A stretch of DNA of 64,000 nt from Acidimicrobiales bacterium (GCA_041594435.1 JBFHME010000001.1:716-64715); one strand, 5' to 3'; counted from the stretch's first letter, positions 22,512-53,699 are shown. A program made the numbers and translations. Notes: generated by a model from the letters alone, not told the origin.

Positions 22512-22617
22512 GCGATGAGTATGAGCTCATCCACCGTCGCCGGGAAGGGCCGATGGTCACATCGAACGCTCTCGGGTTCGGGTGATGAGTCGAGCAGCCA
22601 GGGAGCGGCCCCGAACG

Positions 22618-23598: not shown

Positions 23599-23651
23599 CG
23601 GTCTCGCCGGTACCGGCGTCTTGTGTATGGACCGAGGATCGCCACGATTCG

Positions 23652-27848: not shown

Positions 27849-28009
27849 GGCCGGAAATGGTAGTGGCGGCACCGATCGTCGGATGGATCGGGTGGAGCCG
27901 GATCCGGCGACCGGGCCAAGGCTCGATGCCGGGTCCGTCTCGGCTGCGGAGCTACATTTGGACCGTCCGCCCGAATGCTCACACCCGTTGCGCACCGTCA
28001 GGAGATTTC

Positions 28010-29053
28010 GTGGGTCAAGACGACAACACGGTCAACGCCGAGCCGCCCCATCGCCGACTCGATCGGAAACTGGGTCGGGTGCTGGATGGCAGCTACACCA
28101 ACGCCGATTTCATCATCGCGGACGCGAAGGACGCCGATATGGCCTTCGGTGTCACCGCCGCCGGGCCCCGACCGGAGACCTACATCCCCGTCGGCGATGC
28201 CGGGCCCGGCCGCTACCGCACCCGAGCCGAGTATCTCGATGCCATGAGGGCTCTCATCGGGCAGGGCGAGATCGACATTCTCCTGACCTCGGCCTCCAAT
28301 GGCGAGCGTCTGGCCGGTGGTGGCGATCTCGCCGTCGATAGCGACCTCACCCTTGCCGTCCGGGCCAACGACACCACCGACATCTGGAACCAGCGCGGCT
28401 CCCAGTACTCGTCGATCCCGTCGCGGCCGTTCCGCACCGCCGACCTGGCCTCGGTTCGTCCGTTCTGCGATCTCGTCCTCTACTCGATCACGTTCAACAA
28501 CGATCTCGAACTCGACCGGCAAGCACTCGACGACTACGCGCGGTTCCGAATCGATGCGGCGGCCGTCGGTATCCGCCACTTCCTCGAGGTGTTCAACCCG
28601 AACGCTCCCGATCGGCTTGATCCCAAACACGTCGGATCGTTCGTCAACGACTCGATCGTGCGGGCGCTGGCCGGTGTCACCTCCGCCCACCGACCGCTGT
28701 TCCTGAAGATGGCCTACAACGGGCCCGGGGCGCTCACCGAATTGGCCGAACACGATCCGACGCTCGTCATCGGGATCCTGGGCGGTTCGGCCGGTACCAC
28801 CCGCGACACGTTCGAGCTGTTGCATCAGGCTGAGCACTGCGGCGCCCGTGTGGCGCTGTTCGGCCGCAAGATCCAACGCTGCGAATCCCAACTCGACCTG
28901 CTTCGACACATGCGGATCGTGCTGCGGGAGGAGCTGAGCCCGGCCGATGCCGTGCGCTCGTACCATCAGGCGCTGGCCGATGTCGGGGTCTCGCCGTTTC
29001 GATCGCTCGAGGATGACCTGGAGATCACCGAGCCGGTTCTGCGGGAGGCCTAG
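28010..29053 (+). CDS. Conserved hypothetical, possibly class-I-aldolase-like TIM-barrel protein
   Basis: 347-aa ORF from GTG 28010 (GGAG RBS). Weak resemblance to DeoC/LacD/DhnA-type aldolases ([19 protein letters not shown]). A PfkB kinase gene starts 6 nt after its stop. Family call is tentative. Confidence 0.55.
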
Positions 29054-31085: not shown

Positions 31086-31490
31086 TCAGAGCCTCTTGAT
31101 GGAGAACGCCGGAATGACCCGGGGTGCCGCCGACTCGACGTACTCGGCGAACTGTGGTGCGATTTGGGCCTGGCGGGCCAGCGCCGCCCGCGCTTCGGAC
31201 TCGGGTAACTCCTCGACGCGGGCGGTGAACGACTCCGACCCGTACTCGACGTTGATCTCGGGGTGGGCCTTCAGGTTGTAGTACCAGTCGGGATGGGTCG
31301 GCGCGCCAGCCTTCGAGGCGAACACGACCATGGCGTCGTCCTCGACGAGGGCCACCAGGGGGATCTCTCGCACCTGGCCCGATTTGGCCCCGATGGTGCT
31401 CAGTACGACCAGCGGAGCGTCACCGAACTGGGCGACCTTGCCGTTGTTGGCCCGGAACTCCTCGATGACCTGCTTGTTCCAATCATTCAT
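31086..31490 (-). CDS. Deazaflavin (F420H2)-dependent nitroreductase/quinone reductase family protein (Ddn-like)
   Basis: NKQVIEEFRANNGKV...PLVVLSTIGAKSGQVREIPL...KAGAPTHPDWYYNLKAHPEINVE. Confidence 0.85.
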   Translation of the reverse strand: MNDWNKQVIEEFRANNGKVAQFGDAPLVVLSTIGAKSGQVREIPLVALVEDDAMVVFASKAGAPTHPDWYYNLKAHPEINVEYGSESFTARVEELPESEARAALARQAQIAPQFAEYVESAAPRVIPAFSIKRL

Positions 31491-31534
31491 ACGGCAAACC
31501 CTAACGCCGACCCGCGGTAAGTAGGCTGGGCCGC

Positions 31535-31696
31535 ATGCTCACTCTGGCTCGACGGGTGATGGCCGCGCTCGGTTTGACCGGCCTGATCGCCACCCTCTTT
31601 CGGTTGCGGGGCAGGGGCGGCGTCCCTCCCCAGACCGGCGGTTGGCGGGAACTCACCGAGGCTGAACTCATCGAGTTCCTCGGTTCCGACGAATGA
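31535..31696 (+). CDS. Possible small membrane protein (53 aa), not in the ORF track
   Basis: My translation: MLTLARRVMAALGLTGLIATLFRLRGRGGVPPQTGGWRELTEAELIEFLGSDE. One TM. Its stop overlaps the ATG of the next gene (ATGA at 31693-31696). RBS is weak. Confidence 0.35.
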   Translation: MLTLARRVMAALGLTGLIATLFRLRGRGGVPPQTGGWRELTEAELIEFLGSDE

Positions 31697-32691
31697 CCCC
31701 GACGGTCGCCGTCGCCGGTCTCGGAACCACCGGCACGAACATCGTCCGCCATCTCGTCGACGACCGGTCCCCGCCGCTTTCGCTGCGGCTCCACGACATC
31801 GACGCCACGGCCATCGAGCGGGCCGAACGGCTTGCCGGGGAGCGGGCCGGCGGCACTCCCATCGGTCCGAGTCCGGGCGTCGATCCACCCGACGTCGTCA
31901 TCCTGGCCACGCCGTGCGGTACCCATCCGGCGCTGGCCGCCACGCTGTTGACGGCGGGGAGCCATGTCGTGTCGATCTCCGACTCACCCTCCGACGTCGT
32001 CGCCCTTCTGGAACTCGACGCCCTCGCCCGCCGCGCCGGCCGGTCGATGGTTGTCGGAGCCGGGATGGCCCCCGGCCTCGGCTGCCTGCTGGCCCGCTAC
32101 GCCGGTGACCAACTCGACACCGTCGACTCCATCAACATCGCCAAAGCCGGAACCGCCGGTCCGGCCTGCGCCCGGCAGCACCACCAGGCGCTCAAAAGTC
32201 CGGGTCGGGACTGGGTGGGATCGGGTTGGGAGTTACGGGCCGGAGGCTCGGGGCGCGATCTGGCGTGGTTTCCCGAACCGATCGGCGCCAGAGACTGCTA
32301 CCGGGGCGCGCTGGCAAGTCCGATTCTCCTCCATCGAACGTATCCCGAGGCCAAACGTCTCTCGGCCCGGGTGTCGGCCACCCGCCGTGATCGGCTGACG
32401 TCGCGACTGCCCATGCTCCGGAAGCCACACCACGATGGTGGTCCGGGTGCCGTTCGGGCCGAAGTCCGGGGGTGGCGGACCGGACGGGTGGAGTCGATCG
32501 TGTATGCCGTCACGGCTTTCCCGTCGGTGGTTGCCGCGGCAGTCGCCACCGTGATCGCGCTTCGACTGATCGACGGACTCGGCCCGACCGGCGCCTCCGG
32601 TCTGAGCGAGTGGGAGGACGGCAACATGATCCTGGTCGACCTCCACCGCCGGGGAGTTCCGATTTCGCAGTTCAGCGGCGTCGGCGGCTAG
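31693..32691 (+). CDS. Saccharopine-dehydrogenase-like NAD(P)-binding protein
   Basis: Rossmann start VAVAGLGTTGTNIVRHL, then VVILATPCG...VVGAGMAPGL typical of Sacchrp_dh_NADP proteins. Confidence 0.78.
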   Translation: MTPTVAVAGLGTTGTNIVRHLVDDRSPPLSLRLHDIDATAIERAERLAGERAGGTPIGPSPGVDPPDVVILATPCGTHPALAATLLTAGSHVVSISDSPSDVVALLELDALARRAGRSMVVGAGMAPGLGCLLARYAGDQLDTVDSINIAKAGTAGPACARQHHQALKSPGRDWVGSGWELRAGGSGRDLAWFPEPIGARDCYRGALASPILLHRTYPEAKRLSARVSATRRDRLTSRLPMLRKPHHDGGPGAVRAEVRGWRTGRVESIVYAVTAFPSVVAAAVATVIALRLIDGLGPTGASGLSEWEDGNMILVDLHRRGVPISQFSGVGG

Positions 32692-32715
32692 TCCGGCTCG
32701 CCGAAGCGGAGCCGA

Positions 32716-34254
32716 TCAGACCGCCGCAGGTTTGCCGTTGGACGAGACGGCCGTGTCGCTGTCCGACCTCGTGCTGGGCAGCAGTATCCGGAAGGTCGTG
32801 CCCGTGCCGACCTCACTCTCGATCTCGATCCGACCACCGAGACCGGTGACCAGCGAATGAGCGATGGAGAGGCCCTGACCGGTACCCCGGCCGACCTCCT
32901 TGGTGGTGAAGAACTGCTCGAAGATGCGGTTCTGCAGCTCGGGCGGAATGCCGCACCCGTTGTCGGTGACCGACACCGCCACCATCCGGTCGTCGTGTTG
33001 GGTGGTCGAGATCCGAATAACGCCCGGGTCGCCTGTATCGCCTCGCTCCTCGATGGCGTGAGCGGCGTTGACGATCAGGTTGAGAAGAACCTGATTGAAC
33101 GAGCCGGCCGGCACCGGGACCGCCGGGATGTCGGGATCGAGATCGAGATCGACGTCGGCCACGTACTTCCATTCGCTGCGCGACACGGTGATCGTGGTGG
33201 AGACCAGGCCGTTGATGTCGTTCGGCTCGATCTCGTTGCGGGGATGGGAGAAGCCCTTCATGGCCAGAACGATCTGCGCCACCCGGTCGATCCCCTCCTT
33301 GCTCTGGGTCACCGCCGGTAGCGCCTCCTCGAGGGCGAATTCCAGGTCGACCTCGTTGGCCACGACCTTCAATGCCTCGAGCGCGGCCATTGCCCGTTGC
33401 GGATCGACGAAATCCTCCCGGTGGTCCAGCCACGTCTGAACGAAGCGGTTGGTGTCGGACGTGGTTTCGGAAAGGAACCGGAGGTTGTCGCCCACGAACT
33501 GAATCGGGGTGTTGATCTCGTGGGCGACACCGGCCGCCAGCGAACCGATCGATTCGAGCTTCTGGGCTTCGACCAGCTTGGACTGGGCGTCCTTCAGATC
33601 ATGAAGTGCATCGACCAACTCCAAACGTCGGCGGTCGGAGAAGTTCCAGTGGACCACCATGACCACCGAAAGAGCGACGATGAACGCGGCGTGGATCAAT
33701 CCCCACGTGAACGGAGCGGTGAGCGCGGGCTCATGGTTGTACATGGATTCCGGGGAGATCGTACCGCCGATCCCGTGTGTGCCGGCCACGTAGATCACGG
33801 CGTAGAGGTAGGGACGCCAATCGGCGTAGAGGGCGATCAGAGGAAGGGTCACGAAAAACCCGAAGTGTGACTCGATGAGTCCGTCAGTGCCGTGAACCAG
33901 CAGTCCACAGCCGATGAGAATCCCGGTCGTTGTCGTGAGCTGTTGGAGCTGGCGACCGGGGACGAGGGGCAGGAGTGCGGCGGGTGCGGCGGCGACGATG
34001 GCCTCGGTGATGGTGTGGGAGATGTCGAAATCCCCCTGGTCGAGATCTATGAGAACGGCGACGATCAGGGCGATCGATGCCGTCACCATGTAGCCGATGA
34101 CGAGGATGTGATGTCGCTGGCGCCATTCTTCATCCTTCAGCACGTCCGACGATGGGATGCAGGCCGTCATCTGTTTGAGCAGGGATCCGCCGTTCCGGTC
34201 CTCGCCCCCGTCGACGCTCATCGCGTGAACATCGCTAGGTGGGTTGTCTGTCAT
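32716..34254 (-). CDS. Membrane sensor histidine kinase
   Basis: H-box [25 protein letters not shown]. HATPase N/G boxes (LLNLIVNAAHA, DNGCGIP, GTGQGL). His-rich polytopic N-terminal domain. Alternative start ATG 34221. Confidence 0.85.
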   Translation of the reverse strand: MTDNPPSDVHAMSVDGGEDRNGGSLLKQMTACIPSSDVLKDEEWRQRHHILVIGYMVTASIALIVAVLIDLDQGDFDISHTITEAIVAAAPAALLPLVPGRQLQQLTTTTGILIGCGLLVHGTDGLIESHFGFFVTLPLIALYADWRPYLYAVIYVAGTHGIGGTISPESMYNHEPALTAPFTWGLIHAAFIVALSVVMVVHWNFSDRRRLELVDALHDLKDAQSKLVEAQKLESIGSLAAGVAHEINTPIQFVGDNLRFLSETTSDTNRFVQTWLDHREDFVDPQRAMAALEALKVVANEVDLEFALEEALPAVTQSKEGIDRVAQIVLAMKGFSHPRNEIEPNDINGLVSTTITVSRSEWKYVADVDLDLDPDIPAVPVPAGSFNQVLLNLIVNAAHAIEERGDTGDPGVIRISTTQHDDRMVAVSVTDNGCGIPPELQNRIFEQFFTTKEVGRGTGQGLSIAHSLVTGLGGRIEIESEVGTGTTFRILLPSTRSDSDTAVSSNGKPAAV

Positions 34255-35983
34255 CTGGCGCTACTTCCTTGGGGATGGTGATCGTGAATGTCGTCGTGCC
34301 TTCGTCGGTGTCGGTGTCGACGGTCAGGGTGCCGCCGTGGTCCCGGGTCACGATTCTGTGAGCCAGCGAGAGACCCTGTCCGCTTCCCTTGCCCACCTCC
34401 TTGGTGGTGAAGAAGGGCTCGAAGATATGGGGCAGAACATCATCGGCGATGCCGCCTCCGGTGTCGGATACCGAGATCTCGATTGCGTCTTCGGTGGCTC
34501 GGGTGGTGACGGTGATGCGACCCAGCCGGTCGGTGTCGGCCCGTTCGGCGATCGCCTGGGCGGCGTTGACCACGAGGATCAGGATCACCTGACCGATCTT
34601 GCCGGGCCGGCAGCACGCCTGGGGAAGATCGGGGTCGAGGGCCAACTCCACCTCGGCCACGTACTTCCACTCATTGGACGCCACCGAAATCGTCGACGTG
34701 ATCACATCGTTGACCTGGGTCGGCTCGGGTTCCTCACCCCCGGGATGGGCGAATTCCTTCAGCGCCCGCACGATCCTGCTGACCCGCTCGACGCCTTCCC
34801 GGGACTGATCGACGGCTCGCGGTACCTCGTCGTTCAGGAAGTTGAGATCGGCCTGTTCGCAGGCCGCTATCAGAGCCTCGGCCTTGGCCTTTGCCGTCGA
34901 CTCCGCATCGGTGACGACCGCTTCGTTGACGACCGTCTCGGCCACGTCGACCGCCGTGAACAACAACCGAGTCAGATCGTGGGTAACGGACTTCAGGAAG
35001 CTCAGATTGTCACCGACGAACTGAATGGGTGTGTTGATCTCGTGGGCGACGCCCGAGGCCAGTTGACCGATCGCCTCCATCTTGGAACCGTCGGCCAACC
35101 GGGCTTCGAGAGTCTGCCTCTCGGTGATGTCACGGAACATGAGCAGCAGACCCGTCACGATCCCGCCGGCGTCGGTGAGGGGCACCCGACTGATGTCGAG
35201 ATGACGGGTTCGACCCTCGTCGGTCTCGACCGTGACGAGTTCGTGGGCCTCGGTTCCTCCGGGGCCCATCACCGCTTCGTTGCCGGCGGTGAGGGTCTCC
35301 AACCAATCCGGAACGACTCCGGGGAGATCGTTCGCTGCCAAACCGGTGATCTGGTCGTTGGGGTGCAGACCGACCAACGCCTTGAAGGCCGGGTTGGCGC
35401 CGAGGAATCGGTGCCGGCGATCCTGCCAGGCGATCTGGTAGGGGATGTTGCTCAGTATCTTGTCGAGAACGTCCCGCTCGGCCGCCAGTTGTTGCTCGAT
35501 TTCCACCCGGTCCGAAATGTCGGTGGAGATGCCGAGCAGCCCGATCACCGTGTCGTCATCATCGGTCAGGGGGACCAGGCTGAACTGGACATGTCCCGAA
35601 CTCGATCCCTGGTCGAGCCACGTTTGAGCGTTCCTCACAGGAACCTTGGTCCGCATCACCCGCTGGTCGTCGAGCTCGAACTTGTGAGCGAGTTCGGAGG
35701 GCAACGGGAGATCGTGATCGGTCAGTCCGATCAGATCCCTCGGTGACTCGAACCCGAAGCCTTCGGCGAACGCCTGGTTGCATCCCATGATCTCGCCCTC
35801 GGTGTTCTTCCACCAGATCCGGTGATCGACCGACGACAGCAGTGCGTCGAAGGCGATACCGTCGAGTTCGCTGAGGGCCGCCCAAGCACACAACGGGGAG
35901 CGGTGGTCGTCGCAGCGCGTGGCCGTCCGGTCTACGGGGTGGATCGTTCTGTCGGGAACGGTGGCGTTCGACGGTGGCTGCAC
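34235..35983 (-). CDS. Cytoplasmic multi-PAS sensor histidine kinase
   Basis: PAS-like repeats ([17 protein letters not shown]..., [17 protein letters not shown]...). H-box [26 protein letters not shown]. HATPase (VVNAAQA, DTGGGI, GSGQGL). AAGGAG RBS before GTG 35983. Confidence 0.85.
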
Positions 35984-36063
35984 GCTTCACTCCTTGGCAA
36001 GGAAATCGGCCGAATCATGGTCGGAGTTGAGGCGCAATGGTGGAGAACAGATCGGTCAACAGC

Positions 36064-36091
36064 TAACAGCCGGTGGGAGTCGACCCGATAG
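36064..36091 (+). promoter_or_regulatory. Sigma-28-like promoter candidate: TAAC-N16-CCCGATAG
   Basis: 33 nt upstream of the REC-HDOD GTG (36125). Shares TCGACCCGAT with the site upstream of the tadE-like gene. Confidence 0.3.
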
Positions 36092-36124
36092 GCAACCGTC
36101 AACGCCGACGCGGAGGGCTGATGT

Positions 36125-37303
36125 GTGCTGAAGATCCTGTTCGTGGATGACGAGCCGAATATCCTGCAGGGCACGCGCCGTGCCACGCGCGACATGCGAA
36201 GCGAATGGGAGATGTACTTCGCCCAGAGCGGTGAAGAGGCGCTGTCGCTGGCGGAGGACATCAACTTCGATGTCGTCGTGACCGATATGCGGATGCCGAC
36301 GATGGACGGCGCCGAGTTGTTGACCGCGATCCGGGCCACCAGTCCCTCGACGGCTCGAGTCATTCTGTCCGGCTACGCCGAGGAGGAGTCGGTCTTTCGT
36401 TCCACCCGCGTCGCCCACCAGTTTCTGAGCAAACCGTGTGACGTTCGGATCCTGAAGAACACCATCGCAGCGATCCGTACTGCTCAACAGACGGTGGGGT
36501 CGGAGCATATCAGGGATCTGGTCGGCCGCATCGACCAGCTTCCCGCCTTGGGCGACGTCTACCATCGACTCGTCGCCGCCATCGAGACCGATCGGGCCGA
36601 CAACAACGAGTTGGCCCAGATCCTCAACGAGGACGTCGCGCTCACCGCTGAGATCCTCCGCCTGGTCAACTCGGCCTTCTTCGGATTGAACCGCCGGGTG
36701 GAGTCGGTCGGCCAGGCCATCGGCTTCCTCGGAGTGGACGTGCTTCGAGCCATCGTGGCCGGCTACTCGGTCTTCAACTCCACCGAGTCGGCGGTCCTCG
36801 AGGTCGACGCCATCAGCCGCCGGAGTCAAAAGGTGGCGGCGCTGGCCCGACGAACTCACACCCTGCTGAACGGCGCCTCCACGAACGAGGCGGCAGAGGC
36901 CTACCTGGCCGGAACGCTGCACGAGGTCGGTGCGCTTGTCCTGTCCATGGTGGAGGGGGTGGATCCCGTCGACCTACGAGGCGTCCTGGGCAGCAACGAC
37001 GTGACCAACGAACGGCTGACCTTCGGTGTTGATCGGTTCGCCGTTGGTGGGTACCTGCTCGGTCTGTGGGCCTTCCCGCTCGAAATCGTTGAGGCGGTCA
37101 GCTCGCTCAGCCGGCCGCTCGACGAGCGGGCTCACGGCTCTCCCATGGCCTGGGCGCTCGGCCTGGCCCGCCATGCGGTGATCGAGGATCTCGTACCCAC
37201 GAGCCCGTCGTCCGAGACGTGTGTGCTGGACGACGTGATCGGAGAACTCGACGGGCGACTCCGAAAGGAGCTTACGGTGGCCACGCCGGGAACGAGCGGA
37301 TGA
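36125..37303 (+). CDS. Response regulator, REC + HDOD domains
   Basis: REC (ILFVDDEPN, VVVTDMRMPTMDG, SKP). HDOD-like (LPALGDVYHRLVAAI...ILNEDVALTAEILRLVNSAFFGLNRRVESVGQAIGFLG). Confidence 0.85.
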   Translation: MLKILFVDDEPNILQGTRRATRDMRSEWEMYFAQSGEEALSLAEDINFDVVVTDMRMPTMDGAELLTAIRATSPSTARVILSGYAEEESVFRSTRVAHQFLSKPCDVRILKNTIAAIRTAQQTVGSEHIRDLVGRIDQLPALGDVYHRLVAAIETDRADNNELAQILNEDVALTAEILRLVNSAFFGLNRRVESVGQAIGFLGVDVLRAIVAGYSVFNSTESAVLEVDAISRRSQKVAALARRTHTLLNGASTNEAAEAYLAGTLHEVGALVLSMVEGVDPVDLRGVLGSNDVTNERLTFGVDRFAVGGYLLGLWAFPLEIVEAVSSLSRPLDERAHGSPMAWALGLARHAVIEDLVPTSPSSETCVLDDVIGELDGRLRKELTVATPGTSG

Positions 37304-38430
37304 CCCAACGAATCCTCTTTGTCGACGACGAGCCCAATGTGTTGGACGGGTTTCGTCGAACATTGAGGCGCGCGTACGAGTTCGACACGGCGGTCGGCGG
37401 CCACGAGGGACTGAACCTGCTGAATCAGCATCTGTACGCCGTTGTGGTCTCCGACATGCGGATGTCGAACATGAGCGGCGAGGAGTTTCTGGCCAAGGCG
37501 CATGAGGTTCAACCCGACGCCATACAGATGATCCTGAGTGGCCAGGCCAACCTGGACTCGACGGTGGCCGCGGTCAACGGTGGGAGCATCTTCCGCTTTC
37601 TGATCAAGCCCATGGACAAGGAGGCGCTGACCGGCGCCCTTGACAAGGCACTTGAACAGTTCCGTCTCGTGTCGGCCGAACGTCAACTGCTCGAGCAGAC
37701 ACTGTCCGGTGCGGTCGAAGCACTGACCGAGGTTGTCGGCATGGTCAGCCCGAGGGTGACCAGGCGAACCCGCCATGTGGTCGAGGTGGTGCAGGGCGTG
37801 GCCGGTGTGTACGGCCTGGAGGACGATTGGCAAATGAGGTTGGCCGCCATGCTGGGAGGTGTCGGCTACACGGCCGTTCCCGCCGCCGTCCTGGAGAAGG
37901 CCGAGCTTCGACAGCCACTCAGCGAGGCCGAACAGGCGATGCTGGACCGCCACCCGGATGTGACCGCCCAGCTGTTGGGCCACATCCCTCGACTCGAGGG
38001 GGTCTCCACGATCATCCGCTCCGAAGCCGGAGCAGAGACGCATCCCGACGAATTGGCCCGTCACGTCGAGATCCTGGCGTTCGCCAATGCCGTCGCCGAC
38101 CGTCTTCTGCTCGGTGGCGAGATCGACACCGTGTTGGGTGAGCTGGAGCGGTCGGAATCTCACGACAAGGAACTGATCGACCGGGCCCGACGCAGGCTGC
38201 GGCGCGATGGCACGGTGATCGAGGAGCGGGCGCTGCACCAGCTCGCCGCCGGGATGGTGTTGCGACAGGATGTGTTCACCGTTACCGACGTCATGCTGGC
38301 CGCTGCCGGCACGACACTGAGCGGGTCGCTGCTCGAGCGGCTCAGGAACTTCAACGCCTCGGTTGGTCTGCGGAGTCCGATCAAGGTCGAGTTCGAAGAG
38401 GCGAGAGTTCTCGGGGGCGTTGTCGGCTGA
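37300..38430 (+). CDS. Response regulator, REC + degenerate HD(-GYP)-like output domain
   Basis: REC (ILFVDDEPN, VVVSDMRMSNMSG, IKP). Output resembles RpfG-type HD-GYP (MLDRHPDVTAQLLGHIP) but has no HHE...GYP. The ATG overlaps the upstream stop (ATGA). Confidence 0.8.
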   Translation: MTQRILFVDDEPNVLDGFRRTLRRAYEFDTAVGGHEGLNLLNQHLYAVVVSDMRMSNMSGEEFLAKAHEVQPDAIQMILSGQANLDSTVAAVNGGSIFRFLIKPMDKEALTGALDKALEQFRLVSAERQLLEQTLSGAVEALTEVVGMVSPRVTRRTRHVVEVVQGVAGVYGLEDDWQMRLAAMLGGVGYTAVPAAVLEKAELRQPLSEAEQAMLDRHPDVTAQLLGHIPRLEGVSTIIRSEAGAETHPDELARHVEILAFANAVADRLLLGGEIDTVLGELERSESHDKELIDRARRRLRRDGTVIEERALHQLAAGMVLRQDVFTVTDVMLAAAGTTLSGSLLERLRNFNASVGLRSPIKVEFEEARVLGGVVG

Positions 38431-38529
38431 ACGCGCCGGTTGCCCCGGCCCGATCCGGACCGGGAAGTTTCTCAAGTGGCGAGCGGATGTGGCCGAAACT
38501 CGGACCAGAGAACTTTTCGCAGTTTCCGC

Positions 38530-38557
38530 TAAAGGTTTCGCCGGATCGTGTCGAGAA
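38530..38557 (+). promoter_or_regulatory. Sigma-28 (FliA/WhiG)-like promoter: TAAAGGTT-N12-GTCGAGAA
   Basis: About 40 nt upstream of the sigma-factor ATG (38600). Compare the E. coli consensus TAAAGTTT-N11-GCCGATAA. Confidence 0.4.
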
Positions 38558-38599
38558 CCCTTTTTGTCATGGAGGACTATCGAAGGGTGAGATCAACCA

Positions 38600-39508
38600 A
38601 TGGGTGACACAACTCGAGTATCGGGGAAACAGCGGGGGGAGCTCAATGCTCGCATCGAGGCGAATCTGCCGCTGGTCAAGCACGTCGTCTACCAGGTCGC
38701 GGTGCACTTTCCCCGCCACGTCGACCGCGAGGAGCTGGCCCGGGCCGGAGCGCTCGGTCTGGTCGAGGCGGCCCGCCGTTACGACGAGAGTCGAGGAGTG
38801 CCCTTCGAGCGGTTCGCCGCTCAGCGGATCCGGGGATCGATCCTCGATTCGGTCCGAGCCGCCGACTGGGCACCCCGCTCGGTTCGACTGCTGGCTCGCC
38901 GGCTCGAGTCCGCCGAACAGCAGCTGGCCAGCGAACTGGGCCGTCTGCCCGACATCGACGAGACCGCCAAGGCGCTCGGTGTCAGCAAGGACGAGTTGGC
39001 CCGGCTGCGGGACCGTCTCTTCCGCTCCGTCGTCCTGGCTCTCGATCACGAGACCAGCGCCGACACCGATGAGGATCTGACCCTCGTCGACATCCTGAGC
39101 GACGACAGCGCCGTCGAGCCGTCGGAGGAACTCGAGACCCGCGAGCTGCACAACTACCTGCGTGACGCCGTGAAGTTGCTTCCTGAACGTCAACGCCTGG
39201 TGATCGTCGGCTACTTCCTCGAGGGCAAGACCTCGAAGGAACTGGCCCGCTTCCTCGGTGTGACCGAGTCCCGGGTGTCGCAGCTCCGGAGCGAGGCCCT
39301 GCGCAATCTCAAGCTCGGTATCGAAGCCCAATACGACTCGTCGAACGACGATGAGGCGCCCGTCGGACGGGTGGCCAAACGTCAGGCCGCCTACGTCGAC
39401 CAGATCGGCGAGGCTTCCCAGTGGCGCAACCGTCTCGACTCCTGGGACGACGAGTACGAGGTCCCGGAGGATCCGTTGCTGCCGCTCCGCCGGGTCGCCC
39501 TGACCTAG
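38600..39508 (+). CDS. FliA/WhiG-family (group 3, sigma-28-type) RNA polymerase sigma factor with C-terminal extension
   Basis: Region 2 (NLPLVKHVVYQV...DREELARAGALGLVEAARRYD...FERFAAQRIRGSILD). Region 4.2 (KELARFLGVTESRVSQLRSEALRNL). About 55 extra acidic residues at the C terminus. Confidence 0.9.
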   Translation: MGDTTRVSGKQRGELNARIEANLPLVKHVVYQVAVHFPRHVDREELARAGALGLVEAARRYDESRGVPFERFAAQRIRGSILDSVRAADWAPRSVRLLARRLESAEQQLASELGRLPDIDETAKALGVSKDELARLRDRLFRSVVLALDHETSADTDEDLTLVDILSDDSAVEPSEELETRELHNYLRDAVKLLPERQRLVIVGYFLEGKTSKELARFLGVTESRVSQLRSEALRNLKLGIEAQYDSSNDDEAPVGRVAKRQAAYVDQIGEASQWRNRLDSWDDEYEVPEDPLLPLRRVALT

Positions 39509-39615
39509 GCGGCCCAGGGCCCGGATCGCCGCATCCTGGATCGCCGCACCTCCGATCCGGGGATGTCAGGTGGCACCGAGGCCATCCGAGCTGCACGGTT
39601 CGGGAGGGCGGAGGG

Positions 39616-40371
39616 TCAGAAGGCGGCGGCGGTCTGCCAGCGGTCGAGGAGTGTGGCGTCACCGAAGAGTTCGAGCCGGCTCGGGGGGAGTCGGCACCAC
39701 ACCAGGAGCAGCAGGTCCGACGCCGTGCCGCGGGCGGCCACGTCGGATTTGGCGTGGGCGTGCTCCCACGAGATCCCGTCGGGCCGGTAGGTGACCACCC
39801 ACTCGCCGTCTTCGACGTCGGTGGCGTGAAGGTGCACGGTTTCACCGTTGCCGGCCAAGACGTCGAACTGCATCCGGTTGGGGGCGAAGATCTCGAGGAT
39901 CTCGTCGATGCCGTCGATGGCCTGGCGTGCGTCGATGGGGCTCGGGGTGGCGGTGGCCGACTCGGCGTCCCACCGGTGCATCGCCACTTCGTGGGCCATC
40001 CGACGCAGCCACCAGAAAGCCGGTTGCGGGCCGGTCCACGTCGGGTGGAGGCTGTCGAGGTCGATCTCCGACAGTGTCTTTCCCAGCTCGTCGCCGCCCT
40101 CGGCCGTCCACTCGATCACCTCGGGTCCGTGTGGCGGCTCCGGCACGGAGCCCCGGTTGGGTGGACTGTCGGGGTCGGCGAGCAGCGACATGTTGGCGAA
40201 CCGATAGACCCAGCCGGTGTGGCCGACCACCGATTGCACCGTCCAGCCCTCGAGGTGAGGGATCTCCACCCTGAGGTCACGTTCTTCGACCTGGTTGAGC
40301 CGGGCCGCCTCCACTCGGAATAGATGTTGGTAATCGGCTGCCGACAGTCGGGTCACAACCACCTCATTCAA
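39616..40371 (-). CDS. Maleylpyruvate-isomerase-family mycothiol-dependent enzyme (DinB-like, TIGR03083-type)
   Basis: EGWTVQSVVGHTGWVYRF...WWLRRMAHEVAMHRWDAE pattern. Confidence 0.82.
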   Translation of the reverse strand: MNEVVVTRLSAADYQHLFRVEAARLNQVEERDLRVEIPHLEGWTVQSVVGHTGWVYRFANMSLLADPDSPPNRGSVPEPPHGPEVIEWTAEGGDELGKTLSEIDLDSLHPTWTGPQPAFWWLRRMAHEVAMHRWDAESATATPSPIDARQAIDGIDEILEIFAPNRMQFDVLAGNGETVHLHATDVEDGEWVVTYRPDGISWEHAHAKSDVAARGTASDLLLLVWCRLPPSRLELFGDATLLDRWQTAAAF

Positions 40372-40426
40372 GACGTTGGTTCGGATCTGCGCTAACGAGG
40401 TTCAAGGGTAGTCTCTGCGCTGACCG

Positions 40427-41425
40427 CTATCGAGGGTCCCCGTTGCGATCCACCGAATCAATCCACAGATCGAGTTCGATCCAACGGCTGCGGAGCCACT
40501 CCGCCCGGTCGTGAGGGTCGGTTGGGAGTTCGCTTCGGGTGTGAACCCAGTAGCGCACCGCGATCGGATTCCGGAGCGGCAGTTGCCGTCGGAAGCCTTG
40601 CAGATCGGCCATGTCCTCCAGTCCGACATGACCGAGGATGACGACATCGGCGTTGGGTCGATGGCTCATCAACGCCAGCGAGCCGGCCGGCTTCGGCGGT
40701 AGCAGATGGTTCAACTTCTCGGCGTAGGCCACGACATCGGCATCGAGTTCACCGGCCCGGGCCTTGCGGCGCAACGACTCGAGCACCCGGGTCCGGTTGC
40801 GGGGCGTGGCGTAGGTTCCCTCGGGGAAGATGACGAGGGCCGAGTCGGGCAGCGCCCCGCCGGCGAGCCGGGCGATGCCGTCGAGGTCGGCGTCGGTTCG
40901 CGATCCCCGCCCCACGAACTGGTTGCCGAGCCGTTTGCCGAAGATGTTGATGACCGGATCCCACAGCAGCTCATCCTTCAACACGTAGTGCGCGTAGCGT
41001 TTCAGGTGGGTGCAGATCAACACGATCGGCAGGACGGCATCGACCATCGAGGTGTGGCGGCTCATGAGGATGAACGACCCTGCCGGTACGTGCGACAGGT
41101 CGACGGGATCGAAATGGACCCCGAGAAGGCGGCGTGCCCACTGCAGAAGCGACGAGGCCCACCAGGCCTGCACGTCGCGCTCTGCCGGCAGACTGCTGCC
41201 CCGGGTGAGTCGGGAGGTGACCGAGATCTCAACCGCCCGTGCGACACCCACCCACTGATGGGCCAGGTACACGACACCGAAGCCGGCCAGACGGAGAGTC
41301 GGAAAACGCCAGAGGCGGCTGACGAGGTCAGCCGCCATGGTGAGCAGTATCCAGACGGGGGCCGTGATCACGGCCGCCGGGAAGGCCACTCCGACGGCGG
41401 TGATGCTGACCAGCCGACGAAGCAT
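40427..41425 (-). CDS. Lysophospholipid (1-acyl-sn-glycerol-3-phosphate) acyltransferase family protein
   Basis: HX4D motif (SRHTSMVD) and FPEGT motif. N-terminal TM segments. Confidence 0.85.
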   Translation of the reverse strand: MLRRLVSITAVGVAFPAAVITAPVWILLTMAADLVSRLWRFPTLRLAGFGVVYLAHQWVGVARAVEISVTSRLTRGSSLPAERDVQAWWASSLLQWARRLLGVHFDPVDLSHVPAGSFILMSRHTSMVDAVLPIVLICTHLKRYAHYVLKDELLWDPVINIFGKRLGNQFVGRGSRTDADLDGIARLAGGALPDSALVIFPEGTYATPRNRTRVLESLRRKARAGELDADVVAYAEKLNHLLPPKPAGSLALMSHRPNADVVILGHVGLEDMADLQGFRRQLPLRNPIAVRYWVHTRSELPTDPHDRAEWLRSRWIELDLWIDSVDRNGDPR

Positions 41426-41444
41426 GGTGTCGCTTTCGCCGACG

Positions 41445-41505
41445 CTAGTTTCCCGGCGTCATGTGTGCCGGCGACGCGGTGAGGGACGCACTGCGGGGAA
41501 ACTAG
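41445..41505. repeat. Inverted repeat CTAGTTTCCC ... GGGAAACTAG (10-bp perfect arms, 41-nt spacer with inner GCGTC/GACGC stem)
   Basis: Read directly. Lies between the rpmG stop (41533) and the acyltransferase start (41425). Confidence 0.6.
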
Positions 41506-41532
41506 AGGCCGAGACCGACGGTCGAAGGCACG

Positions 41533-41700
41533 TCAGCGTTCTTCTTTGAAGATGACGTGCTGGCGGACGACCGGATCGTACTTCTTCAGCTCGATCCGTT
41601 CGCGGCTGTTGACCTTGTTCTTGCGGGTGACGTACATGTAACCGGTACCGGCGGTGGACCGCAGCTTGATGATGGGGCGCTTGTCGCCTGCTTTTGCCAT
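41533..41700 (-). CDS. rpmG: 50S ribosomal protein L33 (Cys-less form)
   Basis: [55 protein letters not shown]. Its start overlaps the rpmB stop (TGATG). Confidence 0.92.
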
Positions 41701-41936
41701 CAGACCTTCACCCCCCGTCGACGCATATCGGCAACGACGGACTCGATGCCCTTCTTGTTGATGGTCTTGATTCCCTTGGCCGACACGGTCAGCGTGACCC
41801 AACGCTTCTCGCTTGGGAGCCAGAAGCGCTGTGTTTGGATGTTCGGGTTCCAACGTCGGTTGGTGACGCGGTGCGAGTGGGAAATGCTCCTACCGAACGA
41901 CGGCTTGCGGCCGGTCACCTGGCAGATCTTGGACAT
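41700..41936 (-). CDS. rpmB: 50S ribosomal protein L28 (Cys-less form)
   Basis: [34 protein letters not shown]... is a canonical L28 N terminus. Confidence 0.92.
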
Positions 41937-42076
41937 CGTGGGACCTCAGGGCAATCTAAGGAGGAGTGAAGACGGTGTTCCCCGTGTGCTCGGACCGGTT
42001 TTCGGCGCCGTGTGTTCTCAGCCGTGGAGTACGGCGGAGACCTCGTAGGGAACCATTCAAGGCTAGCGAGCCGGGA

Positions 42077-42107
42077 GAAAACCGAAAACCCGCACCCGAA
42101 CAGGGTC
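42077..42107 (-). terminator. Possible intrinsic terminator after the TadG-like gene
   Basis: The minus strand reads GACCCTGTTCGGGTGCGGGTTTTCGGTTTTC: a short GC stem (ACCC/GGGT) followed by two T-rich tracts immediately after the stop codon. Confidence 0.35.
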
Positions 42108-43865
42108 TCAACGGATGAGTTTTCCTCGATCCTCGGGAAATGCCGCCGCCCTGCTTGGGATGGGTCGTATGTCCAGCAGACCAACGCCGTTGGTGCTCAG
42201 CCTCTTGGTGATGAACTGCGCCGACACCTGCTCCTGGCCGCTGTTGCCGGTGTAGACGAACTCGGCGTGCGGGGCGAAGAAGATCCCCTCCATCTCGAGC
42301 GAGGATCCACCGGCGAACTTGTGCTGGTCGGTCGACTCCGACCACAACAGCAGATCCTCGAACGGCCCGATCGTCGGGGCGATCCACGTCATGCTTCCCG
42401 AACCGTCACCGACGTCGAGCCTCGACGAGGCGCTCACGTACATCATCACGTTGTGGAGTTCGACCAACGACTGGGATCCCTTCGACAGGGTGCCGTTGCG
42501 GAGGAGGACGAACGCCGCCTCATCGGAGCTGTCGCGGATGTCGTAGAGCGAGCCGTCCGTCCAACTGAAGGTGTTGGTGTTGGAGGTGTTGAAGCGGAGG
42601 GTGGCCTGCCCGGACAGTCCGACGTCGCCGTCGAAGACGACGTTGCCACCGCTGAAGGTCAACTCCTCACCGATCGTCAGGTCACAGTCGACCACCCAGT
42701 TCCCTTCCGGCACGACGACGGTCTCGTTGTTCTTGATCGTGCACGGATAGCCCTCGTCCCGATAGCTACGGAAGCCGGTCGGCGTGCCCGAGGAGCCGAC
42801 GTCATCAACCAGACGGTCGATGTAGGCCGGTCGGGTGGCGGCGTCGCGGCAACCGCCGATCTCGAGATCGGCCGGGTAGGTCGACTTGCAGTTGTACATC
42901 CAATCGAGCGCGGCCCGGGTCATCGGGCTTGATGAGCTGGTCGGGTTCGGTGCGACCATGCCGGTACTGGAGCAGGCCGGGTAGCCGCAGGCACCGGACC
43001 CTGCGGCCACCACTTCGATCCGACCGCAACCGGCGCCGGCAGCGGCGGGCAACTCCGTGTCACAGCCGGGTTCGCCATCGGCTCGGATGGTGGCGTTGCT
43101 GCCACTGGTGTTGATGACTCCTTTGGACTTGCAGGAGCCCGAACCGTCCGAATCGACCATGATCCGGCCGGGAAACACTTCGCCGGTGGCGTCGTCGACG
43201 AACGAGCTCACAACGATGCCGCCTTTGCCTCCGCCGGCACCCGAGACGTTCAGGACTTCGCACTCCTCGCGTTCCAGGAGCAGCAGGTTGATGACCCGAC
43301 CGTCGTCGGGTCCGGGACCGTTCATCGCCACGGCGTGGATGGAGGTCTTCAGTTCGTCGGTGCCGACCACGTGGCCGAAGAAGGCGATGTGGGTCTCCTC
43401 GATTCGCACCCCGAATCGGTCACAGGGGTCGCCGTCACCGGAAACCAGGGGCTGGCCGACCGCACCGATGGCCCCCGGCGACATGAGCGGGCTCGAGTCG
43501 GGCACGGGATGGATGAGCTCGAACGTCGTGGATCCGGCGGTGCCACGGCTCACGACGCTTGTCGTGCTGTCGGTGCATCGGTGGGGAAACGATGCGCAGG
43601 ACAGTCCGGAGATCGTCTGTACCGACGCTTCCTCCAGATAGCCGACCGCGGCCAGACAGGCACCGTCACCGCCGACATCGCCGAGAAGATCCGCCGCCGC
43701 CGAGGCGGCAGAGTCGGCGGCGACCTGGTTGGAGGCTCGATCGGTACGGGCCGCGGCGAGATCGACGACCGTGGCGGCGATGGCCGTGAGTCCGATCAGC
43801 ATGAACGCCACCATCACGATGGTGGCGCCCCGCTCGTTGCGTCGCTCGCCGCCGCTCATGGTCAT
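42108..43865 (-). CDS. TadG-like (Flp pilus-assembly TadG N-terminal domain) large secreted protein
   Basis: N terminus ERGATIVMVAFMLIGLTAIAATVVDLAAA is typical of TadG-related proteins. The Gly/Ser/Thr/Cys-rich remainder suggests a beta-solenoid. Confidence 0.72.
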   Translation of the reverse strand: MTMSGGERRNERGATIVMVAFMLIGLTAIAATVVDLAAARTDRASNQVAADSAASAAADLLGDVGGDGACLAAVGYLEEASVQTISGLSCASFPHRCTDSTTSVVSRGTAGSTTFELIHPVPDSSPLMSPGAIGAVGQPLVSGDGDPCDRFGVRIEETHIAFFGHVVGTDELKTSIHAVAMNGPGPDDGRVINLLLLEREECEVLNVSGAGGGKGGIVVSSFVDDATGEVFPGRIMVDSDGSGSCKSKGVINTSGSNATIRADGEPGCDTELPAAAGAGCGRIEVVAAGSGACGYPACSSTGMVAPNPTSSSSPMTRAALDWMYNCKSTYPADLEIGGCRDAATRPAYIDRLVDDVGSSGTPTGFRSYRDEGYPCTIKNNETVVVPEGNWVVDCDLTIGEELTFSGGNVVFDGDVGLSGQATLRFNTSNTNTFSWTDGSLYDIRDSSDEAAFVLLRNGTLSKGSQSLVELHNVMMYVSASSRLDVGDGSGSMTWIAPTIGPFEDLLLWSESTDQHKFAGGSSLEMEGIFFAPHAEFVYTGNSGQEQVSAQFITKRLSTNGVGLLDIRPIPSRAAAFPEDRGKLIR

Positions 43866-44407
43866 CCCGAGGTCCGCTCGAAGCGGGTTACCGAGTTTGC
43901 GTTGAGGGTGATGGTCCGCGAGAAGATCACGGCTTCGATCTCGGTGTCGCGGGCCAACTGGACCTGAACCCGGCGCTCGTCGGACGGGCGCCCGTCATCG
44001 AAACACGTCTGCCCGGTTTGTACCTGACGGGTTCCCGACCGTTCGACCAGTCGAACCGTCTGGTCGTTGGAGCCGATTCCGTTGGGATACACGTAGGCGA
44101 CGCAGATGAACTGTCCGGCCACGCCGGAGTCGAGATCGCCGGTGGCCGACCCGACGGCGACGTCGGCCACCGTTTCGAGCCATCCGGTGAGATCGTTCTC
44201 GATCGGTCTCACCGCGCCGTAACGCGACGATTCCCGGGCCGCGTTGTTCATGGAGATGCTGCGGTCGTAGGCGGTGCCGACCGTGACGGTGCCGAGAAGG
44301 AACGCCAGGAGGACCGGCAGAACGAGCGCGAACTCGACCATGACGGCACCTCGTTCGTCTCGTCTCCGGGCTTGGCGTTGCCCGTCTTGTCGACCGTATC
44401 TGATCAC
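43862..44407 (-). CDS. TadE-like pseudopilin
   Basis: RDERG/AVMVEFALVLPVLLAFLLG gives a G/xxxxEF prepilin-peptidase-type site plus the TadE hydrophobic segment. 4-nt overlap with the downstream TadG-like gene. Confidence 0.8.
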   Translation of the reverse strand: MIRYGRQDGQRQARRRDERGAVMVEFALVLPVLLAFLLGTVTVGTAYDRSISMNNAARESSRYGAVRPIENDLTGWLETVADVAVGSATGDLDSGVAGQFICVAYVYPNGIGSNDQTVRLVERSGTRQVQTGQTCFDDGRPSDERRVQVQLARDTEIEAVIFSRTITLNANSVTRFERTSG

Positions 44408-44414
44408 CTCCTAC

Positions 44415-44442
44415 ACATCGGGTCGAGGCTCGGACCGCTTGA
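44415..44442 (-). promoter_or_regulatory. Sigma-28-like promoter candidate: TCAA-N16-CCCGATGT
   Basis: Its -10-like octamer ends 8 nt upstream of the TadE-like GTG (44407), implying a leaderless or very short-leader mRNA. Confidence 0.3.
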
Positions 44443-44557
44443 GGATGGGCGGCACCTCCGCCCACCGTCGCCGGGCCGAACGACCCGGGTCCCGCGGCCC
44501 GGGCTCCAAGGCCGTTGCCGCCCCCCACTCCGGCCCCTCGGACGGTCGGGCCGACGG

Positions 44558-45229
44558 TCAGTCGGTGGCGTCGGGTGGTGGGATCCTGGTGCCCGGCACC
44601 CAGCGGCGATCGCTGTTGGCCGGGACCCGTATCATCGGGACGATGACGAGCAGGTAGGCAACGGCGGCGAGGGCGAGCGCCGCGACCGGCATCCACAGCC
44701 AGGCCCGCTGCGTGCCCTCGCCGATGGCCACCGCGGCCCCGATACCGACGAGCCCGATTCCGCCGGCGACCGCCACCGCCATTGCCGATCCGACGAAGAC
44801 CGAGGTGTCGATCACCGCGTCGCGCCGCCGCATGTGGTTGATGCGAACGGTCTCGTTGTAGGCCAACGCGCTGACCCCGCCGACGGTCAGCGCCAAGGGT
44901 CCGAGGTCGGACAGCAGCGCCACGTAGGCCACCAGCGCGTAGAGCAGCACGGCCCCGGTCGCCAACCACATCCACGTGTGACTGCCCGTTTCCATGGCCA
45001 CGTAGTGCAGGATCACGCCGAAGACCACCGCCCCGGCCCCGAAATACAGGCCTGCGTCGGCGAACGCGACCACGGCCCACAACAACATGATCGTCAGGCC
45101 CCCGAGCCACTCGGCATGGGTGTGGTGGGTGACGAAGTTGCCGCGCCAGTCGTTCATCCGCCCTCGCACACCGGCCTTCGCCGGCCCGGGCGCCTTCGAC
45201 CCGGCCGCCGACCTTCCGTTACGCCACAT
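44558..45229 (-). CDS. Hypothetical integral membrane protein
   Basis: Five or six TM segments and no family recognised. Alternative start ATG 45157 (MNDWRGNF). Confidence 0.58.
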   Translation of the reverse strand: MWRNGRSAAGSKAPGPAKAGVRGRMNDWRGNFVTHHTHAEWLGGLTIMLLWAVVAFADAGLYFGAGAVVFGVILHYVAMETGSHTWMWLATGAVLLYALVAYVALLSDLGPLALTVGGVSALAYNETVRINHMRRRDAVIDTSVFVGSAMAVAVAGGIGLVGIGAAVAIGEGTQRAWLWMPVAALALAAVAYLLVIVPMIRVPANSDRRWVPGTRIPPPDATD

Positions 45230-46474
45230 GGTGCGACCGGCCGATGCTGTTACGTTTCCGCACGGCGACCCGGCGCAGCACGTGCTCGAGCGAATCGTCG
45301 GGCTTCCACGGGATCACGACGACCTGACGTTCCCGCAGCCAACGCTCGTTCAGCTCGTTGCCGACGGCAAAGATCCGCCGGGCCAGTTCGCCGATCGTGT
45401 CCTCCGGCTCCGGCAAGGCGGGTTTGATGACCATGATGTCGTGGCCTCGGCTTCGCAGTGTCACCAGCATCGACAGGGTGCGCTCGTTCAGCAGCGGCGA
45501 GATGGCGACGATGGTGGCCGACGGCGGCAGGTTGGCCGGGAGCACCGCCTGCTGTGGGTTGACGTCCTGGGGGAACACCTCGGTGGCCAGCAGGGAGTCG
45601 ACGATCGTGTGGAGGTGGCGGCGCCCGAGCCTCGGCGGCAGCCAGCGGATCGTGCGGCCAACGTCGAGCAGGCCAAGCCGGTCCTGGGCTCGGAGGTGAC
45701 GTTCGCCCAGCGCCATCGCCGCCGTCACCGTCCAACGCAACGACGTTTCGATGTCGACACCGAGATCCTGCGCCGAATCGACGAGAAGAACAATGGTGGA
45801 GGATCGGTCCGGGTGCCGTTCGATCACCATGGGCGTGCCTCGACGGGCGGTCAGCTGGGGGTGGATCATGCGGACCGAATCGCCATGGCGATAGGGACGG
45901 ATCTCGGCGAACTCGCTACCCGTGCCTTTGCTCGTGGCCCGATGTTCTCCGGTCACCGGGCGTTCCCGGTAGAGGGGAATCAGACTGGTCAACCGCTCGG
46001 CCGGCGGATGGACCCGGACCGGTTGATTCACCGGATGTCGGTACACCCGCTCGGAGAGCCCGAGCCGGTCGCGGTTCGTGATGATCACCCATTCGGGCCC
46101 GCTTGCCCCCCATCGCCTGGCCTCGAGTTCGACAGGGAAGGTTCGCCGACTCGACACCGTGGCCACGAACCGGGCCGACGTCACGGGAATCAAGGTTGCC
46201 GGGAACTGGATTTCGATGTCGGCCTCGGTCGCCTGGTCGGCCTCCACCGTCACGGTGAAGGTCAGCCTGTCGCCCTCGACGACCCGATCGACGCTCACGC
46301 CGGTCGACAGCATCCGGACCTCGGGCCACCAGCCGTCGGCCAGCGAGAAGGCCAGTGCGCCGATGAACGGGGCGGCGAGGGCTGCCGGTTCGAGGGCGCG
46401 GAACACCAGTGCCAGGGTCAACCCGCCGAGGCCGATGACGAGGCACAGCCAGAACCGGTGGGTGAGGTGACGGG

Positions 46475-46478
<4 letters not shown>
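45219..46478 (-). CDS. DUF58 domain protein (MoxR-associated)
   Basis: EFAEIRPYRHGDSVRMIHPQLTARRGTPMVIERHPDRSSTIVLLVDS is the DUF58 core. Two N-terminal TM segments. 4-nt overlap with the MoxR gene. Confidence 0.85.
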
Positions 46479-47776
<1,298 letters not shown>

Positions 47777-47788
47777 TCGGTGCTGATC

Positions 47789-48154: not shown

Positions 48155-48158
48155 GGGC

Positions 48159-53162: not shown

Positions 53163-53202
53163 CGAGGTCCGTTTCGGAGGGGGCGTCGAGTCGGCGATGG
53201 GG

Positions 53203-53631: not shown

Positions 53632-53699
53632 AGCCCGGGCGACAGTAGCCGGAGTGGGTTTCACTCTGCAACTCAGTCCGCCTGTCGAGCGGGAGACGG

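Follow-up and report, generated by a model that had tools for sequence, protein, structure and literature searches.

In Escherichia coli, the regulator RssB, in which a receiver is joined to a pseudo-enzyme output, controls the sigma factor RpoS by contact, and in Streptomyces RsiG together with cyclic diguanylate (c-di-GMP) sequesters the sigma factor WhiG. A branched two-component network, HnoK-HnoB-HnoD, was reportedly described by Plate and Marletta in 2012 for Shewanella oneidensis and Vibrio cholerae. According to a preprint that summarises the network (10.1101/2021.11.05.467447), HnoD is a degenerate HD-GYP regulator that lacks phosphodiesterase activity and inhibits the phosphodiesterase HnoB. 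DvhD of Desulfovibrio vulgaris (PDB 9RBZ/9RC0), an inner-membrane receptor of dCache-TM-PAS architecture, has an HD-GYP fold in which SQ replaces HD, and neither a metal site nor catalysis. Even metal-free, it binds c-di-GMP at about 99 nM (PMC13090378). Among proteins with an HDOD domain, GsmR of Xanthomonas campestris is a regulator with a receiver (REC) and an HDOD domain which, as cited in PMC4114195, has no phosphodiesterase activity and affects flagellar genes, and SadB of Pseudomonas (YbaK-like plus HDOD) is a ligand-independent adaptor that delivers AmrZ to Lon (PMC12075610). Here we analysed 64,000 nucleotides (nt) of DNA from an Acidimicrobiales bacterium, an actinobacterium of the class Acidimicrobiia (GCA_041594435.1 JBFHME010000001.1:716-64715; GC content about 67%), hereafter the window, and in it a locus at 32716-38430 that encodes two histidine kinases (HK1 and HK2) and two response regulators (RR1 and RR2). 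This locus is probably a self-contained branched two-component cassette of a widespread type, whose outputs act by protein contact and to which the sigma factor gene that follows does not belong.

The two kinase genes lie on the minus strand, HK2 (34235-35983, 582 amino acids (aa)) upstream of HK1 (32716-34254, 512 aa), and their reading frames overlap by 20 nt. They are transcribed away from the regulator pair on the plus strand, with a divergent intergenic region of 141 nt (35984-36124) separating the two operons. RR1 occupies 36125-37303 and RR2 37300-38430, the stop of RR1 and the start of RR2 overlapping by 4 nt. RR2 begins at the ATG at 37300 and not at the GTG at 37219. No match to a sigma-70 consensus and no sigma-28-like match was found in the 141-nt divergent region, and an Rfam scan of the whole window returned nothing. 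On all points that can be judged from sequence, the four genes make up an ordinary two-component system, with RR1 falling in the REC-HDOD class.

The regulator RR2 has 2,487 matches at E <= 1e-5 among the candidates scored, and its annotated full-length homologues (about 379 aa, 38-43% identity) come from Acidobacteriota, Pseudomonadota and other groups. The RR2 output module alone was found in 1,658 cluster representatives (50% identity clusters, E <= 1e-10), nearly all of which are 370-395 aa long and carry the module at about residues 132-375. Gene neighbourhoods were then compared in a sample of loci, 80 from a scan of one genome per species plus two fetched earlier, with counts given for 81; neighbouring genes were found by tblastn with the domains of the window. 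By their record titles, these loci belong to Acidobacteriota, Planctomycetota, Verrucomicrobiota, Gamma- and Alphaproteobacteria, Myxococcota, Desulfobacterota, Chloroflexota, Nitrospirales, Actinomycetota, Hydrogenedentota, Zixibacteria, Latescibacteria, Krumholzibacteriia and Ignavibacteriaceae. Within 4.5 kb of the RR2 homologue, 71 of the 81 loci encode a kinase whose core belongs to the subfamily of HK1 and HK2 (about 45% identity), and 68 have a REC-HDOD gene within 3 kb. The commonest gene order, seen at 45 loci, was kinase, HDOD regulator and RR2-type regulator on one strand. A 4-nt overlap of the HDOD stop with the start of the RR2-type gene was present in 19 of 54 loci, and in 38 of 54 the spacing was between -14 and +6 nt, which is the pattern expected of proteins made together. 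Recurring as it does in dozens of genomes, the gene set is far beyond chance.

All-against-all clustering of open reading frames (ORFs) at these loci revealed no third-party neighbour at more than 13 loci; besides the cassette genes themselves and their antisense shadow ORFs, only a small stand-alone receiver recurred. The cassette is self-contained, and no target appears to be encoded next to it. Divergence correlation among the three cassette proteins across loci gave no information once two close relatives had been removed. The stand-alone receiver, a protein of about 170 aa, is encoded after the cassette at 13 loci (for instance at 11189-11701 of L015), and one or more extra REC-HDOD paralogues stand directly after the RR2 homologue in L001 (11270-12457), L085 (11251-12444) and L004 (8084-10526, two copies). 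The copy in the window is without the extra REC-HDOD paralogues seen in its Acidimicrobiia relatives. In the literature that we searched, the coverage of which is incomplete, no description of a paired HDOD and pseudo-HD-GYP cassette was found.

Both kinases have the phospho-accepting histidine of an H-box and the GHKL ATPase that characterise two-component kinases, with Pfam HATPase_c scores of 86.8 bits (HK1) and 79.7 bits (HK2) against a cut-off of 26.4 bits. HK1 gave in addition a weak HisKA match. Hydropathy analysis placed hydrophobic segments at about residues 50-201 of HK1, a multi-pass membrane N-terminal sensor region that is followed by the DHp domain with its H-box and by HATPase_c. 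HK2 is cytoplasmic, has two PAS domains (PAS_4, 96.1 bits over two stretches) and shares the DHp/H-box subfamily of HK1. The cores of the two proteins are 48% identical and a 15-residue H-box segment is the same in both; the two kinases are paralogues. Since the H-box signature G-x-LAAG-[IV]-AHEINTP-[IV]-Q-[YF]-[VI]-GDN was found at at least 41 loci, the near-identity of the two H-boxes is a trait of the family. Among the Acidimicrobiia cassette loci, an orthologue of HK1 (61.5% identity) is present in L004 only, and orthologues of HK2 (48-57% identity) are present in every one. The NCBIfam label T2SS_HK was rejected: about 200 bits against a cut-off of 450 bits reflect a sub-threshold match to core or receiver, not membership.

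RR1 combines a receiver (Response_reg, 71.7 bits) with an HDOD domain that scores 129.8 bits against a cut-off of 22.9 bits and covers profile positions 1-192 of 196 (Pfam). Read directly, its receiver contains DDEP...TDMRMP...LSG...SKP. In the HDOD pocket a single one of the usual histidines is left (LHEVG), and the positions that hold histidines in metal-binding HDOD domains read R/S, R and S-L. Its best solved relatives in the PDB are the HDOD proteins 3m1t, MmoQ (3ljx/3p3q) and 3hc1, with E values from 1e-13 to 1e-10. RR1 thus resembles GsmR and MmoQ (Methylococcus capsulatus, PDB 3LJX/3P3Q) in being a receiver with a non-catalytic HDOD domain and no DNA-binding domain; to our knowledge, neither of these has been described as paired with a pseudo-HD-GYP regulator. 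It also resembles SadB, in which most pocket histidines of the HDOD domain are lost, but SadB has no receiver and lies outside two-component systems.

RR2 consists of a REC domain (54.8 bits), a pseudo-HD-GYP domain recognised as a partial HD_5 match (56.8 bits, profile positions 3-102 of 170) and a C-terminal beta-rich domain. Its receiver and that of RR1 belong to one REC subfamily (37-40% identity). It reads GG at the HD position and RSEAG at the HHE position, and has no GYP. The loss of these motifs extends to the whole family. When 82 full-length relatives were aligned and compared at the positions canonical for HD-GYP domains, HD was absent from all 82 (the position reads SQ, SG, GG or AP, most often SQ as in DvhD), HHE was absent from all 82 (RSEAG/AQAG there), GYP was likewise absent, and the first metal-binding histidine was an invariant arginine. 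The alignment sets MLSQIGC / MLGGVGY of the RR2 family on the LLHDIGK motif of HD-GYP domains. In contrast to these losses, the receiver residues D9, D10, D52, S/T80 and K103 were kept in 82 of 82. The family does not have the residues that define an RpfG-family catalytic domain (metal-binding H...HD...H...HHE...D plus GYP), and RR2, although it has the HD-GYP fold, is therefore predicted to be no RpfG-type phosphodiesterase. Together with the pocket of RR1, this indicates from sequence that both outputs are catalytically dead domains of the HD superfamily. The NCBIfam label of NosR-family REC-HD-GYP phosphodiesterase was rejected for RR2, its 185.6 bits against a 400-bit cut-off being a sub-threshold match to core or receiver and not membership.

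AlphaFold2 gave confident models of RR2, with scores (pLDDT, predicted local distance difference test) of 86 over its full length and 90 over residues 131-376. In these models a long helical linker joins the receiver to a domain made up entirely of helices, and a small, conserved C-terminal domain rich in beta structure occupies about residues 300-366. Because receiver matches dominated both a PDB search with the full-length sequence and an initial Foldseek run, the output part was modelled and searched alone. Foldseek against the PDB then returned HD-GYP domains only, in the order DvhD (9RBZ), PA4781 (4R8Z), PmGH (4MCW) and Bd1817 (3TMB) with a probability of 1.00, the DvhD match having a TM value of 0.5-0.6. 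A profile of 15 RR2-type output modules likewise placed DvhD first in the PDB (E 7.7e-9), followed by V-cGAP3. The C-terminal beta domain matched no Pfam family, including DUF3391, when the 15 output modules were scanned at E <= 1. No helix-turn-helix or other DNA-binding Pfam family was matched by RR1 or RR2.

Of the described systems, the Hno network is similar in that its kinase or kinases feed several receivers and in that HnoD, a REC domain with a degenerate HD-GYP domain (HD replaced by SE, HHE by QLE), contacts a partner regulator; this likeness is drawn from the published description of HnoD. In the Hno network, however, HnoD has as its partner a REC-EAL phosphodiesterase that is active, and an H-NOX nitric-oxide sensor provides the input, whereas here the partner is a dead REC-HDOD protein, and RR2 has an extra C-terminal beta domain that distinguishes it from HnoD. 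No EAL or H-NOX domain was found in the four genes and 20 flanking genes scanned, none recurred near the cassette at the 81 loci, and no GGDEF gene was linked to the cassette. RR2 shares with DvhD an HD-GYP fold that lacks metal site and catalysis, but is a response regulator and not a membrane receptor. Compared with RssB and RsiG, no homology was found to the PP2C-like domain of the former or to the latter, and the cassette has no conserved linkage to a sigma factor gene.

In the mechanism that we favour, the core unit is a kinase of a dedicated DHp subfamily with two co-translated response regulators, one REC-HDOD and one REC-pseudo-HD-GYP. Here two paralogous kinases would feed the module, one through a membrane-embedded sensor and the other through two cytoplasmic PAS domains. 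Either kinase may phosphorylate both receivers, and the two pseudo-enzyme outputs would act as a pair, via protein-protein contacts, on a target encoded elsewhere, for example with one regulator modulating the other or with both docking on a common partner. As neither protein has a DNA-binding domain and both outputs are dead, output is presumably by protein contact and less likely by ligand binding, and by analogy HnoD, SadB and GsmR support such an output for RR1 and RR2 as precedents. The original prediction had already recognised the divergent kinase pair and the overlapping regulator pair, near-identical H-boxes exactly as we found them, a membrane sensor in one kinase and multiple PAS domains in the other, an HD-GYP-like domain without the HHE and GYP residues, and two regulators without a known DNA-binding motif. 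From this it had proposed an output by protein contact or nucleotide binding, of which contact is still a reasonable reading and ligand binding has become less likely, most of the DvhD contacts being missing. More tentatively, kinase, REC-HDOD and REC-pseudo-HD-GYP might form an ancient obligate unit in which the two dead regulators, in a fixed ratio, make up a phosphorylation-controlled heteromeric switch, an unrecognised class of output; we consider this possible but doubtful.

The gene that follows the cassette encodes a sigma factor of the FliA/WhiG family (38600-39508, plus strand), which starts 169 nt after the end of RR2 and reaches the cut-off of the FliA/WhiG subfamily TIGR02479 (198.8 against 189.6 bits) but not that of the WhiG equivalog NF004935 (184.4 against 343 bits). 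The original prediction was thus right in naming it as the very next gene. Orthologues 74-98% identical are present in many Acidimicrobiia assemblies, which makes it a core gene of the class, whereas the best non-self relative of RR2 is only 77% identical. In two sister genomes (L088 and L089) the sigma factor is 96% identical and the flanking genes are kept on both sides, those for a PfkB kinase, a luciferase-like oxidoreductase and a 334-aa Rossmann-type protein on one flank and MDMPI, acyltransferase, L33/L28, DUF7305, TadE, DUF58 and MoxR on the other, but the four signalling genes are absent. In a further genome, complete and 5.39 Mb in size, the sigma factor is 94% identical and its gene comes directly after a 333-aa gene, with no signalling genes between; the other neighbours differ from those in the window. 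By blastn, window 31507-32688 corresponds to L089 3935-5167 and window 38471-47796 to L089 5265-14516. These two L089 segments are 97 bp apart, and window 32689-38470, a block of 5.78 kb that holds exactly the four signalling genes, has no counterpart there, so that the difference is a clean indel. The block lies between the conserved Rossmann-type gene and the intact upstream region of the sigma gene. Its GC content is 63.6%, compared with 67.2% in the rest of the window, the lowest of any 5.8-kb stretch. At the ends of the block, neither direct nor inverted terminal repeats exceeded chance, and no tRNA or integrase was found. Its lower GC and the differing sites of the cassette relatives suggest that the indel is an insertion here rather than a loss in the sister species.

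Those relatives (L084, L090 and L091 at 75-77% identity, L085/L086 at 71%, L004 at 68% and L001 at 67%) lie, in all 7 Acidimicrobiia loci, at other chromosomal sites; the flanks there have no match anywhere in the 64-kb window, and none of the 7 has a sigma gene nearby. The five-gene arrangement itself was seen only in one species-level population, comprising at least six assemblies whose RR2 proteins are 100% identical. Directly upstream of the sigma gene, the 130 nt before its start (38471-38599, plus strand, outside the cassette) are conserved at about 88% column identity between the window and the cassette-less genomes L089 and L087. The sigma gene therefore keeps its own expression signals. 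This region holds a sigma-28-like TAAAGGTT-N12-GTCGAGAA at 38530-38557, followed by an almost invariant leader up to the start codon, which could reflect autoregulation or a conserved leader element. The same motif and the classical TAAA-N15-GCCGATAA occur elsewhere at chance frequency, and neither is present in the 141-nt divergent region; a sigma-28/WhiG-type promoter linking the sigma factor to the cassette was rejected on these grounds. Beyond region 4, the sigma factor has a C-terminal extension of about 55 aa (about residues 246-302; 39335-39505) that is conserved across Acidimicrobiia with the pattern P-x-GRVAKRQAAY ... W ... RL..WD..Y.VPE.PLLP and is possibly a docking site. In a Sorangium-labelled assembly (L012, 1327-12024), a cassette in the order kinase, RR2-type regulator, HDOD regulator comes directly after flhA, flhF, a gene for a FliA-like sigma factor, motA and motB, which hints at a motility connection in that lineage; it is the only one of the 81 loci with a FliA-like sigma gene within 10 kb of the RR2 homologue.

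The original prediction saw in the adjacent sigma factor a plausible target of the regulators. If this model is confined to this species, RR1 and/or RR2 would, once the cassette had come to lie beside the sigma gene, bind the sigma factor as a phosphorylation-dependent anti-sigma factor or as a proteolysis adaptor in the style of RssB and RpoS. The gene is close and on the same strand with no predicted terminator between, the arrangement is stable across the assemblies of the species, an HDOD protein serving as proteolysis adaptor for a transcription factor has a precedent in SadB, the conserved extension could serve for docking, and the distant L012 cassette stands behind flagellar and motility genes. 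Set against this, the linkage is absent in all related genomes examined and in 80 of the 81 loci, so that the conserved association of regulator and sigma gene that marks an RssB-like or RsiG-like control module is lacking; a conserved core gene stands beside a patchy, relocating cassette; its upstream region is the same with or without the cassette; and no sigma-28-like promoter motif connects the two. We consider this form of control very improbable. The original prediction had itself named a lack of synteny of the five genes in relatives as what would refute it, and this is what the sister genomes, the 5.39-Mb genome and the relocated relatives reveal. Its analogy to control by c-di-GMP and RsiG is not supported either, since the c-di-GMP-binding residues of DvhD are mostly missing in RR2. 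By sequence comparison, the sigma gene appears as a bystander and not as part of the cassette.

The absence of those residues also bears on the view that RR2 is a receptor for a cyclic dinucleotide (c-di-GMP, cyclic GMP-AMP (cGAMP) or pGpG) like DvhD, which would integrate phosphorylation with the level of a second messenger. DvhD is the best match both by profile and by fold, it binds its ligand tightly without metals, most members of the RR2 family have its SQ at the HD position, and the family-invariant R156, W177, E211 and I-P-R 229-231 could line a pocket. Yet among the canonical-site contacts of DvhD, Y523, L577, K582, Y621, M646, R650, Y652, R653 and E668 only the equivalent of L577 (L207) is kept: the segment with M646, R650, Y652 and R653 falls in a gap of the RR2 family, K582 and the GYP tyrosine Y621 are substituted, and RR2 of the window reads GG and not SQ. 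In the profile alignment, the equivalent of the bridging-site residue P567 of DvhD is the invariant P194. Binding of c-di-GMP in the manner of DvhD is thus unlikely to occur in RR2, although the invariant residues could form a different binding site, and we regard a receptor role as rather unlikely overall. Branched systems with sink receivers are well known, and RR2 might be a mere phosphate sink or decoy that tunes the phosphorylation of RR1, its degenerate domain having no output of its own; the close kinship and co-translation of the two receivers would fit. But its output module is conserved from end to end in many phyla, has invariant residues at a distance from the receiver and includes a conserved extra C-terminal domain, which argues for a selected function of its own and leaves the sink improbable. 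Least credible is that one of the two HD-superfamily domains keeps hydrolase activity on some nucleotide. The isolated HDOD domain of D. vulgaris DVU0330 is weakly active on bis-p-nitrophenyl phosphate (bis-pNPP; PMC4114195), but DVU0330 retains the HD residues, while RR1 has the one histidine of LHEVG and RR2 none of HD or HHE.

Several points weigh against a self-contained cassette that acts by protein contact. We infer the phosphotransfer partners, the contact between RR1 and RR2 and the target from sequence. The nearest solved relative of the RR2 output, DvhD, is a c-di-GMP receptor, so that RR2 may have a ligand-binding role. With no mobile-element scars at the indel, the choice of insertion over loss depends on GC content and on the locations of the relatives. 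Finally, transcription may read through from RR2 into the sigma gene in this species, for no intrinsic terminator was predicted between the two and the local fold was no better than that of shuffled sequences (z = -0.29).

Around the locus, the flanks contain F420- and mycothiol-related genes, and the closest homologues of the window proteins are labelled Acidimicrobiia, Acidimicrobiales or Ilumatobacter. A second small indel is formed by an F420H2-dependent quinone reductase gene (31086-31506), absent in L089 and located elsewhere in L087. On the minus strand, 42108-49313 encodes DUF7305, a TadE-like protein, an unannotated gene, DUF58, a MoxR AAA+ ATPase, a small gene and DUF4129, a group downstream of the locus that is conserved in the sister genomes and has no relation to the cassette. 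Five coding-looking ORFs with high third-position GC had no Pfam match (27857-29053, 44558-45229, 47789-48154, 53700-54671 and 54668-55858), and a composition profile in 2-kb steps gave local peaks of GC skew of 0.106 (22001-24000) and 0.141 (52001-54000).

Collectively, our results suggest that control of a WhiG-like sigma factor by phosphorelay is an idea built on an adjacency present in one species only. What emerges instead is a uniform and very common cassette that pairs a REC-HDOD with a REC-pseudo-HD-GYP regulator and for which no function is described in the literature searched. Its cultured carriers include Desulfosediminicola flagellatus, Desulfopila aestuarii, Planosporangium mesophilum and Stieleria sedimenti. 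If true, the heteromeric switch would be an unrecognised class of two-component output, with more than 1,000 protein clusters in at least 12 phyla and no characterised member. HDOD is one of the commonest signalling domains with an unclear mechanism, and a conserved obligate partner would provide a handle on HDOD regulators.

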